In this document: positions 24,024-55,392 of the stretch, one piece after another
Numbering within the stretch: the first letter of the stretch is position 1
How the letters are laid out: every line of letters begins with the position of its first letter
NCBI GenBank assembly: GCA_964016885.1
Contig: OZ024741.1
Coordinates: forward strand, 171,926,001 to 171,990,000
Source: Eledone cirrhosa
Lineage: Eukaryota
Direction of reading: 5' to 3'
DNA: 64,000 nt
Translations under genes and position numbers: made by a program
Notes under the pieces: generated by a model
Seen by the model: only the letters and a program-made list of their open reading frames with translations
Told to the model about the DNA's origin: nothing
The model's database searches: none

Positions 24024-24345
24024 ATATATAAGAACAAAAGATGGTTAAAAGAGTTCCATGTATTTTATTATGCGCATTTCAAAAACAAATATCATCATGC
24101 AATAATATTTGTGTTTTCATCAGATAAAACAGGAAGACATGATATGAAGGTTAAAAAACACTTGTGGATAGTTCAGTTTTAAATCAACATATCATATAAT
24201 GCGCATAATAAAATATATGGAACTCTTTTAACCATCTTTTGTTCTTATATATTATGTATACTCCAGTCCTACAAACTGTAGAGTGCTTCTTATCCGATAT
24301 CTGCATTGCTTTATTGTACTACAATAAAACTCACCCCCTACATTA
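24024..24345. mobile_element. Non-coding hairpin mini-element, family A (copy 1)
   Basis: Inverted arms 24024-24078 / 24198-24252 plus a tail; homologous to 39506-39840; flanked by TA/TC repeats. Confidence 0.8.
24063..24129 (-). ncRNA. Type I hammerhead ribozyme motif
   Basis: ttttat-CUGAUGA-stem II-GAAA-ugcgc-AUA-ataaaa; palindromic stem III. Confidence 0.75.
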
Positions 24346-24527
24346 CATCTCTCTCTCTCTCTCTCTCTATATATATATATATATATATATATATATATAT
24401 ATATATATATATATATGCAGTATATATATATATATATATATATATATATATATATATATATATATATATATATATATATATATATAATATATATAGATAG
24501 ATATAGATAGATATATATATATATATA

Positions 24528-27500
24528 GTAATAATAATAAATTTGAAGACTAAAATCCAAAGAGGGCTCGATAAGTATAAATATATATAAATATATACGG
24601 GTGAAAGCAGCGATTCTTTGCTTAAACTTTAATCTGTTATTTTAATAGATATTTGCACCACGGTTCTTATATATTTGATATATATTTATCCTTATCGAGC
24701 CCTCTTTGGATTTTAGTTTTCAAATTTATTATTATTACTATTTGGCTCCCCCGGTTGAGCACTCTATTGACTTATATTCATCATGCAGAAACAACATCTG
24801 AATATTTCTACAAAGAACATACCCGTACCAAGCAGGAAAACATACCTAAAACTCCTGATACATTAAAAGATTGCGTTGGTGTGCCTTTAATTTCGATAAT
24901 CAAGGAAAAGCAGACAACAGACAGGATAAATTTGGGTTTAAAACCTATAATAACCCTCCGAGTAACCCAGCATTACTACCCTTCGAAAATGATGTCTTGG
25001 AACTCATACGGAGTATCAAATTTCGGAATAGGAGCAATTCCTTCCAGCAGGACCTGAAGAATAGAATTCGTTCTATTAAGGATTCTAATGCCGTGCACGT
25101 CCATTCCGACAAAACTGGCAATCTATATCAAGTGGGGCGCAGTACGTACCATCAACTGCTACATAATGCTGGAACTAAGGATTACCGTAAAACTAATCGG
25201 AGCGTCATTAATGAAATCAACGATGCTGGGTTTAAAATCACCTCTGATCTCAACATCCTGGACCGGACTGAACCTCTGGACCCTATTTCTCCCTACTTTA
25301 CCCTGAGGGATCACAAATCCAATTTTCCGAACAACCTCTCTATTCGGCTTATTAACGCTACGAAGTCCGATTTAGGTAGACTTAGTAAAAGGATTCTTGA
25401 TAGAATTATACCTGAAATTAGAAGTTTGGCCCCTCTTGCACTGTGGAACAATTCTTTCGCGGTGATTGATTGGTTCAACGGCATATACAAGGAACATTGC
25501 CGTTTTATCCAATTCGACATCAATAATTAATACTCCTCCATCACTTTACCACTTCTCTTCAGAGCTATCAATTTCGCTAAATCACTCACAGTGGTTAAGG
25601 ATTTCGAAGTTGATGTCATCCTCAATGCCCGTAACTCGGTGATTAATTTCGACGACTCTATTTGGATTAAAAAATCTAATAGTACCCCATTCGACGTGAG
25701 TATGGGTGCCAGCGATTCTGCGGAGGTTACTGATCTTATCGGCCTTTTCCTTCTTTTCTCTATCATGGAAGCATTCCCCAACGTGGGCGGTGGTTTGTAC
25801 CGTGATGATGGTCTTTTGACCATGACTAAGTGCGGCCCACGTGCTTGCGACAGGTTCAGAAAAGAACTCACAGCCTTCTTTAAAGGCTTGAACCTCTCCA
25901 TACAGGTTGAGGCCAACCTCTCGGTCGTTAATTACCTCGAGGTTACCCTGAATTTATCGAATGGCTTGTATTACCCGTATAGAAAGCCGAATGATACGCT
26001 TAATTACATAAGTAAGCATTCTAACCATCCTGCCAGCATAACCAAGAACCTGGTAAGAAACGTTTCTTTGACGCTTTCCCGTCTATCTACTAACGAGCAT
26101 ATTTTCAACGACCATTCCACTTATTACTATGAAGCTCTTGCTCGGAGTGGATTTGACGATAAGGTAGCATATACAGAGTACGAGAATAGACCTAGAAGAA
26201 ATAGATCCCGACTCATTATATGGTATAACCCACCATATAATATGGAGGTGGCCACACCTTTAGCTAAGATCTTTCTCTCCCTTATCACGTAGCATTTTCC
26301 CCCTACACATAAATATAGTAAAATTTTAAATAGAAATACTATTAAAATTTATTACTCTACGACTCCTAACCTTGCACATAACATCACACAGCTTCAAATT
26401 TAGCTAAACTACCTAGCCGTAGGAACACTTGCAGCCCTGTAGTTAGTACTAACTGTAATTGTAGGAATCGTGTTGACTGCCCCCTATCCGGGAAATGCCT
26501 CTCTAGTAACATTGTCTACAAATGTAAGGTTGAAACACCCACATCCCGTAGGGCCTACATAGCGTTAACCGCCAATAGATTCAAGCAGCGTCTTTACATG
26601 CATACCCATTCTTTTCGATACCCTTTAAGAAGGAATATGACGTCACTTTCAGCTTATATCTGGAGTCTAAAAGACAACCACACCCAATATAAGTTACACT
26701 GGGAGATCCTAGCTAAGGCTAGATCGTATAACGGAAATAAAAGACCTTGTGATCTCTGCGCCGCTGAGGCCCTGGAAATACTCTACGCCAAAGACCACAT
26801 CTTAAACAAAAAATCTGAGGCAATTTCGGCTTGTAAACATAAATTGCACAAAACTTTCCTGTATTACAGCCGTACATTACACCCTAACGGATAGTACGAA
26901 CTATACGCGGTTATTTTACGTCTTGATGTGGTAGCTATGTTATGTTTATACCATTATTTATTTGTATAGGTAAGTATATATTACCTGTATGCTATGTGAA
27001 GGTACGTATACTTTCTCGTACGTATATTTGATTGTATATGTTATGGCGTATATATTATATATTCTGGTACATATGCTTTTGGTTATGTGTATACGTGAGT
27101 TTTGCGTCTGTGTGAGTATGCGGGTTCGTACGTATGTAGGCTGTGTGTATATGTGTACGTTGTTTTTTGGTTAACGTTCGTCTCCGAACATATGTGTATA
27201 TACATGTATGTATGTGTGTGCGCTTGTTATATACGTATTTATTTATTTATAGACGTTTATTTAATTATATGTATACACGCGCACACACACACACACATAT
27301 ATATATTTTTATCTGTATTTGGTGTATACATTCGTATGCGTGCGGGTATAGGCGTTGCGTGGGTTCTGTATGTGCGTGCGGGTTTTTTTCTTTTTTTTTT
27401 CTGTGTACGTGCGTGTATTTGTATACCTATGGCGAGTGTTTTCGCGTATGCTTGTGTATGTATATGGATGCGTGTATGTATTTATTTAATTTCAATTACC

Positions 27501-52898: not shown

Positions 52899-53015
52899 TT
52901 ATTCTGATGAAATGACAGTAAATAATAACATTGAAATATTGAATGTCTGCATAACTAAAAGTTTGTAGATAGCTGTTTTAGGTTATGTAACTGTTATAGA
53001 AACACGTGTCAATAA
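52899..53015 (+). ncRNA. Type I hammerhead in the P2 3' region (mirror copy 46016-46132, minus strand)
   Basis: ttatt-CUGAUGA(52904)-ugacagu..acuguua-GAAA(52999)-c acgu-GUC-aataa; palindromic CACGUG stem III. Confidence 0.82.
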
Positions 53016-55164
53016 ATTCCTTTCAACTAAACTGTATCCATTCAAATCTTTCTATTTTTCTCCGGATTACCTTTGGAACTACAACTGGAACCGTCGAGCA
53101 AACTCTACGTGAGCTGATAATCTACTGTGTGTAATATTTATATTACAACACAACGGAAGATACTGTATATATATATATATATATATATATATATACAGAG
53201 AGAGTGAACCATAACGCACTAGAGTACTCAATACTTAGGTTAGTAGAGTGGGTAATATGAAAAGAGTCAGGACCCCGACGGCTGAGCGCCAGCCGTTTTG
53301 ACAGCTAGACCCGAACTGTTCGGATGTAGCTGTCGAAACGGCCGGAACTCCGTTATATATATTCGTCTCATTCTGACGTCACCAGCCCTGTTTTTCCACA
53401 TGTGCATTTTATTTTCATAATCACGCATGATGTTAAACTAGCCTGCTTTTAAATTCCCTTTTTGGCATATTAATCATTGAGAATTTGGCTATCGTGTTGA
53501 GCTCTGCTGAGGATCGGATTCCAACCGTGACCATCTCCACTGAAAGTGTTCGTGAAATAGTCTTTTCAAGACTATACAGAACATTTGTAGTAGTCCCAAA
53601 TTGAAGGATGAGTATTTTAAACTTTATTTTATCATGAGTTAAGGCTCTATTGATTTTTCCCTGGATTTCACTAAATTCTGTTGGATAAATCTATATCCTG
53701 ATTCTTTTTGAATTGAGTTTGAATTATTTTTCCCACATCTTACGTTAACTATTTTCCCATTTTGACGCTATAGTCACTTATATATTATGGAATACTGTTG
53801 GCTTCTTGCTACAATACCTTTAATTTATATATATATATATATATATATATATATATATATATACTCGATGTCTGTTTATAATATTTTTGTATTGTAGGTC
53901 ATAGTAGCACCCGAGTTGCTTTTCCTTCGGTGGTATCTCATTTAACCGATGGTGGTAATTTTGACCGCTGGGTAATTGTTTCTTAATTTGGGGTGGAGCT
54001 GCATCATTACTTTTTACTTGCCTCTTGTATGGTGAACAAACTTTGATTGTTGAAATACGTAACAGCTTTTAATCCAAAGGATAATTGCATCGATTGTATC
54101 ATTTACGTCTTTCTTTTCGTGTCATTCGTTTTGTAGTGTGGCTTATGCCGCATGTCATGTTCGTCCTTTTCTTTAGACGATGCTGTGAAATTTGTGAAAG
54201 AAGGTTCGTATTTGTTCACGCGTTTTGTTTTAGTGTTGGTTTTAGAAGCTTTCTTCTTGAAGGACCTCGTGGATTTTGCTGTTGGTTTACCCCTGGTCAA
54301 ATCTGATCGAGAATCTCTACGATCAAAGACGTTCTAACAATAACTACCCCAGAGTTGTTTTGGTTGTGTATTTAGGAATGTATTTTTAATGTAATGTATA
54401 ATTTAGAGGAGATTTGGCTGATATAAATAATTTGTCGATTTGATTGTACTTCAGCGGTTAAGGACCGTAGTGTCTGTTTGAAAAAATGCCATATTAAAGC
54501 ACCTCAGTTTAAAACTACTAAATGGTAGCGTTACACTAGGATACGTTAATATGGTGTGGATTGGTGACCACCTAAACATAGGAACGATTCTCATAAAGTT
54601 GCTTCCACACAGTTTCCTTCAACATAGTTTCTGTCACAAGGCATTTTGTCAACACGAATCAATGGCGGAACATTTTTCTCAGCCAAATAGCCGTTCAGCT
54701 AGAATGAATTCGGAACCACTTATCTGCAAAACTAACTTCTTAACCACACATGTTGTTTTATCAAGATTAATGATATATATACGCTTATAGTTTCGATTTA
54801 ACTTCCAGTCAAAAACACAAAAACCACAAAAATAAACGAAACAACTTTTCTAGAAATATTCTATTTCATTTGAAGCGTCTCATTCTGTTCATCAAGACAA
54901 TTTATTATTTCAATTTTTACGTTTGCTGCTCTTTCTTTTAATTCAATTTATCTCCAACTTCATTTTCCCTCCTTCTGAAATTCTTTTTGCATAGTTTATT
55001 AACTTTAAAATTAGTTTACTTATAATGAAATATATTCCTATATAACCTTACTGTATTTCTTTTGCCTTAATGCATACCTTGCGCGTATATATATATATAT
55101 ATATATATATATATATATATATATATATATATATATATATATATATATATATATATATATATAT

Positions 55165-55392
55165 ATATTAATTTATTAAAATAACAGATTAAAGTTTAAG
55201 CAAAGAATCGCTGCTTTCACCCTTAAGGGGTCTTCTGAAGATCCCGTTAAGGGTGAAAGCAGCGATTCTTTGCTTAAACTTTAATCTGTTATTTTAATAA
55301 ATATTTGCTCTACGGTTCTTATATATTTGATATATACTTATCCTTATCGAGTCCTCTTTGGATTTTAGTCTTCAAATTTATTATTATTACTA
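55165..55392. mobile_element. Solo P1 pLTR hairpin (mini insertion) in (TA)n
   Basis: Palindrome centred near 55235 made of P1 pLTR sequence; tail ends TTATTATTACTA like the other P1 termini. Confidence 0.88.

Follow-up and report, generated by a model that had tools for sequence, protein, structure and literature searches.

Paired short and long 3′ ends of head-to-head insertions into (TA)n in Eledone cirrhosa, and their probable origin by twin target-primed reverse transcription

In a window of 64,000 nucleotides (nt) of the 3.0-Gb Eledone cirrhosa genome (contig OZ024741.1, positions 171,926,001 to 171,990,000), more than 12 hairpin-shaped inserts with (TA)n at their borders lie between 24 and 56 kb. 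From their motifs we assign these elements to Hydra-clade Penelope-like elements (PLEs) and non-coding hammerhead relatives of them. Their head-to-head inserts nearly always pair one arm that ends at the shorter of two fixed 3′ ends (S) with one that ends at the longer (L), and all distances to S and L are given here in nt past the predicted ribozyme cut. We consider it probable that such inserts arise by twin target-primed reverse transcription, the two arms ending at two fixed sites; the original prediction had proposed twin (double) priming, and it is supported by the S+L pairing, by non-nested arms, by copies with an S arm only and by joints between families.

Two fixed 3′ ends and their pairing

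Families A–F were surveyed by searches of the genome itself, from which the best-scoring loci were taken, at most 30 per search out of up to 1738 candidates, a non-random sample. Every family had two fixed 3′ ends, at +45/+134 (S/L) in A, about +25/+118 in B, +45/+160 in C, +52/+141 in D, +58/+179 in E and +313/about +440 in F, with an S-to-L spacing of about 90–130 nt in all six. Within families A–E, 230 of 243 microsatellite-abutting 3′ ends were at S or L, partly by construction, since three of the query sets (A set 1, B and C) included L sequence. Pairs in A–E were classed by script and those in family F by eye. Head-to-head inserts of A–E joined one S to one L in 69 of 76 cases by script and in 73 of 76 once four script artefacts were resolved as S+L (P ~ 1e-18 against a 50:50 choice), which leaves L089, L223 and L090 as genuine exceptions. 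A hand count of the sets whose queries held no L gave S+L in 51 of 55. Family F contributed six S+L pairs, one L+L pair and three that were unclassifiable. The position of the ends is non-random across copies, and termini at the cut itself are rare (1 of 110 arms, from queries that spanned the cut).

Outcomes were also predicted before regions were fetched. The far ends of family B were S in 5/5 (4 independent), the inverted S arm was present in 6/8 family C regions (5 independent; one was without an inverted arm and one without a match), and the outer ends of family D were S+L in 7/8 pairs; two pairs among these B, C and D regions were duplicates of one insertion. Duplicate loci (L101, L060, L069, L116, L126, L130, L142, L168, L175, L179, L181, L185-186, L209-210 and L084) were excluded from the counts. 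The same insertion occurs at two to three places in the genome in several cases (L150/L151, L059/L060, L062/L069, L208-L210), as segmental duplications or uncollapsed haplotypes.

In the window, the ends that merge into (TA)n lie at +46 in A, +21, +24 and +27 in B, +45 in C, +51 in D, about +58 in E and +313 in F. The opposite end was, as first described, a longer copy of the same strand at 53170, 55393 and about 39842. Two further positions once named as ends, 39750 and 53055, are not plus-strand ends; they correspond to the inverted-arm ends at 39503 and 45976 carried over to that strand. The long distance noted for the cut at 40407 (about 310 nt) was right, although it is the fixed end of family F and not an outlying copy. 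That both ends are 3′ ends is true of two-armed insertions and fails for single-armed ones: 5 of 26 family E loci are single-armed with (TA)n on both sides, and the element with its cut at 42608, formerly listed as a two-ended case, is a single-armed hammerhead element of about 170 nt (family N, 42490..42660, plus strand), as in 19 of 20 family N loci (those oriented correctly). The two-ended geometry is not universal; many copies have one arm. In family N (L226-L245 and the window copy), with 704 genome candidates, the 3′ end is fixed at a single point and so, mostly, is the 5′ end; three copies extend upstream into common sequence, and a 20-nt inverted tip at 42696-42718 faces the window copy across (TA)n.

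The largest insert is an autonomous Hydra-type element of family C (45976..53170), the minus arm of which ends at S (45976, +45) and the plus arm at L (53170, +160), with the joint at 49490-49540; its arms differ at five internal columns over 3.5 kb. The tail from S to L is 115 nt long (53056..53170, plus strand), and its last 85 nt are identical to 49490-49574, the 5′ untranslated region of the open-reading frame (ORF), forming a pseudo-long terminal repeat (pseudo-LTR). Two hairpins of family A (24024..24345, hammerhead on the minus strand, cut 24069; and 39503..39842, cut 39708, S +46 and L +134) have a minus arm ending at S and a plus arm ending at L, as do a zero-loop hairpin of family B (55171..55393, S +27, L +118) and a hairpin of family F (39927..40840, cut 40407, S +313, L about +440). 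The reverse order, minus arm L and plus arm S, is found in a long copy of family B (24525..27984, arms of 73 nt and 3.4 kb, with a broken Hydra-type ORF at ~24790-26894), a second family B insert with non-nested arms of 368 nt and 1.1 kb (43868..45358, cut 45337, S +21), a hairpin of family D (28012..28443, cut 28392, S +51), and an ORF-less 525-nt tandem unit, family E (41540..42456, cut 42398), in which the minus arm, of 1.3 units, stops at L (+179) and the plus arm at S (about +58). Family G is present as a hairpin with a minus arm L and a plus arm S (43658..43849) and as an insert in which a 44-nt minus arm consisting of the L tip only meets a plus arm that runs to S, with no sequence common to the arms (39346..39443). 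Further hairpins have a one-sided tail and no hammerhead was seen in them, one with a tail of about 135 nt (40884..41402, polarity inferred from the tail) and one with a tail of about 35 nt (37330..38890), with similar cases at 30000-30402, 43400-43585 and 56300-56502.

Predicted ribozymes and the position of the ends

Hammerhead-type cores with a closing stem I were confirmed at 39708, 40407, 53010, 28392, 42398, 42608 and 45337, the last five of which were missed by a strict hammerhead scan, since their stem II is long or contains mismatches, and were read directly from the sequence. The core of family C is a predicted type I hammerhead with a long stem II (52904..53010, plus strand, cut after 53010). 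In family G the cut is better placed after 43831 than at 43826, where it had been put, as stem I at 43786-43792 pairs with 43832-43838, and the end is then at +18. The window copy of family N has a C where the core needs a U, the canonical letters being present in 15 of 20 family N loci. Family B, with about 1450 candidates, mostly has the core CAGAAGA and not CTGAnGA (27920-27926 and 45296-45302 in the window), and a further canonical core with a 6-bp stem I lies at 59866-59900. Rfam gave no hammerhead match in the window; low-complexity matches of microRNA type, below threshold, were dismissed as chance. Folding energies of the hammerheads were unremarkable aside from one of eight, at 42558 (z = −3.0). 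The ribozyme activity of these cores is predicted from their sequence pattern.

Copying across the cleavage site, which had been proposed, is supported in that 104 of 110 arms run through the predicted cut and one ends at it, a count biased by queries that spanned the cut. No peak of 5′ ends was found at the predicted cut, only isolated cases in L016 (+2), L113 (−2) and L048 (−3, via an internal deletion). Of the circular, multimeric or uncleaved template that had been suggested, the crossing of the cut is supported, and a circle is allowed but not required, because linear RNA made up of tandem units would be enough. Arms of more than one unit are found in family E, which is short, and also among autonomous copies, and in one case (L127) the tandem units differ mosaically, unlike copies of one monomer circle.

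The distance from cut to S is family-specific, 18–58 nt in six families (+18 in G) and 313 nt in F, and the ribozyme therefore does not set the end. A causal link from the cut to the position of the terminus is not supported, while a small shared stem adjoins S in 8 of the 12 window tails. This 4-bp stem, RYTC/GARY, starts within about 15 nt of S, against 0.67 tails expected from shuffles, and the pattern was chosen post hoc, after the tails had been inspected. It varies on both sides (ACTC/GAGT, GCTC/GAGC, GTTC/GAAC); the strict rule did not find it in family C, which is autonomous, and family N lacks it. A 7-letter tail motif taken alone was not enriched in the window (16 against 14.4 expected). 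The stem just after S fits the choice of end better than the ribozyme does, and is a candidate protein-binding or start signal. Microhomology of the TAT/TATA type at the ends, as originally noted, is real but short, with an exact TA-type overlap of 1–8 nt (median about 3) at the 12 ends measured, in AT-rich DNA. A frequent stop for family A arms is a CATATG some 124 nt 5′ of the cut, and the comparable stop in family D is GCTAGC (about −137). Family A also contains an internal inverted repeat of about 170 bp upstream of the hammerhead (L028 1491-2756 and other A loci).

Twin priming and its alternatives

In the mechanism we propose, a reverse transcriptase (RT)-endonuclease, possibly a dimer, would bind the S–L tail of an uncut tandem transcript, perhaps via the small stem 3′ of S, and would cut both strands of the self-complementary (TA)n, whereupon one DNA end would prime at S and the other at L, aided by the TA overlap of 1–8 nt. 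Each complementary DNA (cDNA) would extend 5′-ward and stop independently, often at a family stop site, and the two cDNA ends of the same polarity would pair at short inverted homologies, most easily self-complementary hexamers, after which repair would fill the palindrome. A single arm would mean that one DNA end had made no cDNA. Both arms would usually derive from one RNA or one source locus and occasionally from two different RNAs.

One alternative is that one strand, cDNA or antisense RNA, folds back and extends itself, with an endonuclease or a TA match ending the second arm at S and later deletions at the centre leaving unequal arms; this requires that one arm be copied from a portion of its partner. 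Among 55 adjoining-arm pairs, the S arm reached more than 5 nt further 5′ in 17, the L arm did so in 21, and in 17 the two began within 5 nt of each other, the last a point for fold-back. In the 17 S-longer pairs, mostly young, each arm holds sequence absent from the other, because only the L arm carries the tail, which argues against it. The arms mostly overlap, and little or no common sequence is found in a minority (L017, L146, L147, L152, L154, the window insert at 39346-39443, and the micro-arms of L109 and L122), with no overlap in L146, L152, L154 and 39346-39443. Five single-arm copies carry S only (L121, L172, L192, L196 and L205), and S can therefore start an insertion alone. Palindromic joints with a zero loop (7/55), at self-complementary 4-7-mers, should be easy between two strands and hard for one self-folding strand. 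Head-to-head joints also cross families, in L225 (A-S with B-L), L103 (B-L with M-S) and L012 (C-L with A-L), again unlike the product of one folding strand. Short pieces of other families' RNA occur at joints or within arms (L041 1760-1800; L203 1157-1300; L225 314-341), suggesting template jumps. Lineage variants were common to sister arms more often than to non-sisters, in 184/337 against 1418/12940 for A, 16/24 against 6/72 for C and 16/128 against 114/2574 for E (gap columns included), so both arms usually have one source, and fold-back would give the same result. In family E, however, one site varies in 9 of 44 copies, three ways (background 135/18413 calls), and the change is in one arm only in 7/7 informative sister pairs, variants that fold-back would not leave unshared. 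This site lies in the loop of hammerhead stem II, 50 nt upstream of the cut (~42348 in the window; L114-L143), and could be explained by the RT misreading a base that is modified or structured. Palindromes at inverted joints have been interpreted in print as fold-back (PMC3846280), and Craig et al. (PMC8557442) suggest that the tail results from endonuclease resolution; on the balance of the arms described here we regard it as unlikely.

That ribozyme cleavage and circularisation define the template, with ends set a short distance past the cut and tandem arms made as rolling-circle copies, we hold to be quite unlikely. Animal retrozymes are expressed as circles (PMC7229834), the arms of family E run from 1.3 to 3.3 units, and private variants are often common to the tandem units of one insertion; against this stand the family-specific distances from cut to S, the mosaic units of L127, the mostly non-canonical core of family B with its unchanged geometry, and ribozyme mutants that leave insertion in vitro unaffected (PMC11167929). 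This alternative is a matter of the template and could hold together with twin priming. Assembly of the hairpins afterwards, from two separate insertions or by recombination between neighbouring copies, is very unlikely: elements do cluster in the same (TA)n tracts and a few cross-family joints exist, but the joints are without (TA)n, and S+S and L+L pairs would be expected about half the time, without common lineage variants. An assembly artefact, palindromes made from fold-back long reads, is hardly credible. In its favour, the 3.5-kb arms of the largest palindrome match almost perfectly; against it, each family has its own points at which the symmetry breaks off, the flanking DNA is no mirror image, the two arms are unequal in both length and sequence, and six families on many contigs show the same pattern. 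DNA reads over 41545-42452 were uninformative on the assembly: the family is present in other DNA runs, with only one opposite-strand joint (4 reads) and none spanning the joint in the window.

Several observations weigh against twin priming at S and L. Four same-type pairs exist (L+L in L089, L223 and L200; S+S in L090), and family N lacks an inverted arm and has just one 3′ end. Non-nested arms could equally result if palindrome centres were deleted at a later time, deletion between neighbouring elements could create cross-family joints, and the variable site of family E may be a DNA hotspot and not an RT error. Most L arms extend far beyond S, so strand displacement of the S-primed cDNA or a second RNA is needed, and L arms that stop at S are weakly enriched (7/25 against 14% expected, P = 0.05, post hoc window). 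In vitro, moreover, both strands used the same start sites in Poseidon, which alone gives no one-of-each pairing (PMC11167929).

A stronger form of twin priming is possible, and we put it forward tentatively: in PLEs twin priming may be both obligatory and ordered, an RT dimer reading the conserved tail stem and starting one strand at S and the other at L, strand displacement allowing two copies of the same RNA, or a pair of RNAs serving instead, which might even belong to unrelated families, and the cDNAs joined at short palindromes. If true, ordered twin priming alone would explain the tail, the inverted pseudo-LTR and chimeric insertions across the whole class.

The elements and related systems

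Within the family C element, an intact ORF of 773 amino acids (aa; 47088..49406, minus strand) has RWK at 37, DKT at 121, YRDD at 352, CxCx5C at 631 (CNCTYPDNC), a GIY-YIG-like YVG at 665 followed by a YVG/R/E/N pattern, CxxC at 729 (CKLC) and CxH at 757 (CRH); the GIY-YIG core contains a single cysteine only, i.e. no CCHH. It has 300 homologues at E ≤ 1e-20, and Pfam matched no family for the Hydra-type ORFs. A second copy of the ORF (49624..51946, plus strand) has a frameshift near 51582, the broken ORF of family B is of the same type, and family D is autonomous elsewhere, with an intact ORF of 738 aa in L220 that is 43% identical to the window ORF and has RWR and DKT. These motifs, read as an RT with a C-terminal GIY-YIG and accompanied by RWK, DKT, CxCx5C, CxxC and CxH, together with the hammerhead pattern in the pseudo-LTR (52904-53010) and insertion into (TA)n, are those of the Hydra clade, and the pseudo-LTR partial tandem, inverted 5′-truncated copy and one-end tail are the insertion structure of endonuclease-bearing (EN+) PLEs. 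Families E (525-nt unit, up to 3.3 copies) and F (unit of about 700 nt, tandem continuation seen) are ORF-less tandem units with a type I hammerhead, as in non-LTR retrozymes.

Elsewhere in the window, non-LTR retrotransposon fragments lie on the minus strand at 33833-34864 and 7771-8736 (Pfam RVT_1, zf-RVT), and an ORF fragment with helicase-like motifs at 21003-21494 (minus strand) presumably resembles a Helitron or PIF1 helicase. A dispersed repeat of about 190 bp is present in at least eight places (3169-3388, 6973-7124, 9583-9707, 10146-10370, 13995-14176, 17430-17619, 31576-31698 and 59307-59512), and a 256-bp direct duplication with 98% identity occupies 30434-30689 and 31061-31316.

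Twin priming in LINE-1, as reportedly described by Ostertag and Kazazian in 2001, also has both target strands prime and two cDNAs join head to head, with the 3′ side of the RNA at the outer ends; there the priming is said to be at poly(A) and at a variable internal site, and the pieces not to overlap. In the Eledone elements, priming is at two internal sites, each of them fixed, and as a rule the arms overlap and so form palindromes. Our literature search, which did not reach many older subscription papers, yielded no publication in which PLE inversions are put down to twin priming. In Arkhipova et al. 2013 head-to-head repeats were read as self-priming, probably on an antisense template (PMC3846280), the sole explicit model that the search brought up. 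Craig et al. (2021, PMC8557442) list the formation of tandem and inverted PLE structures among the questions for future work, and the S+L rule bears on it. Twin priming would also explain ribozyme-bearing hairpins that fill such genomes and resemble DNA transposons or microRNA precursors.

Much of the anatomy that the original prediction presented as new, the inverted copy, one-sided tail and (TA)n target, is already described for PLEs (PMC8557442). Craig et al. give RWK, DKT, a CxCx5C linker, CxxC, CxH, hammerheads and (TA)n insertion for the Hydra clade, and for EN+ PLEs partial tandems, an inverted 5′-truncated copy and a tail of 30-40 bp, often at one end only. Our elements are alike in protein motifs, canonical hammerhead, target, inverted copy and one-end tail; they differ in a unit of about 3.6 kb (<3 kb there) and a tail of about 90-130 nt (30-40 there), and the strict S+L pairing and the stem after S found here are not described in the sections of that account covered. 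Animal non-LTR retrozymes, for which circles are documented and a non-autonomous derivation from PLEs has been proposed, were first described with units of 170-400 nt (PMC7229834; bioRxiv 10.64898/2026.07.22.740005); families E and F resemble them, judging by sequence, as ORF-less tandems with a type I hammerhead, and their units are longer (525 and about 700 nt).

The closest biochemical counterpart is Poseidon of Anolis carolinensis, the protein of which, predicted to be a dimer, cuts and extends both target strands in vitro, with uncut RNA as the main template; its copying begins internally, at two positions that lie beyond the hammerhead cut and mark the limits of the tail (Frangieh et al. 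2024, PMC11167929). The outward-facing 3′ ends beyond the cut site are thus already in print, as is the uncleaved template, and the S+L rule is a sharper regularity; inverted insertions are not discussed in the sections of that paper covered by a term search. Six young families that follow the S+L rule, together with the intact protein of 773 aa and substrates that are short and non-coding, yield sharp predictions for the existing in vitro assay, which was set up for another clade. The two systems are alike in their two tail-bounding start sites, their use of both strands and their uncut template, whereas in Poseidon the start site has no homology with the target and the two strands begin at common sites (PMC11167929), and in Eledone cirrhosa the ends have a short TA overlap and each strand has a site of its own.

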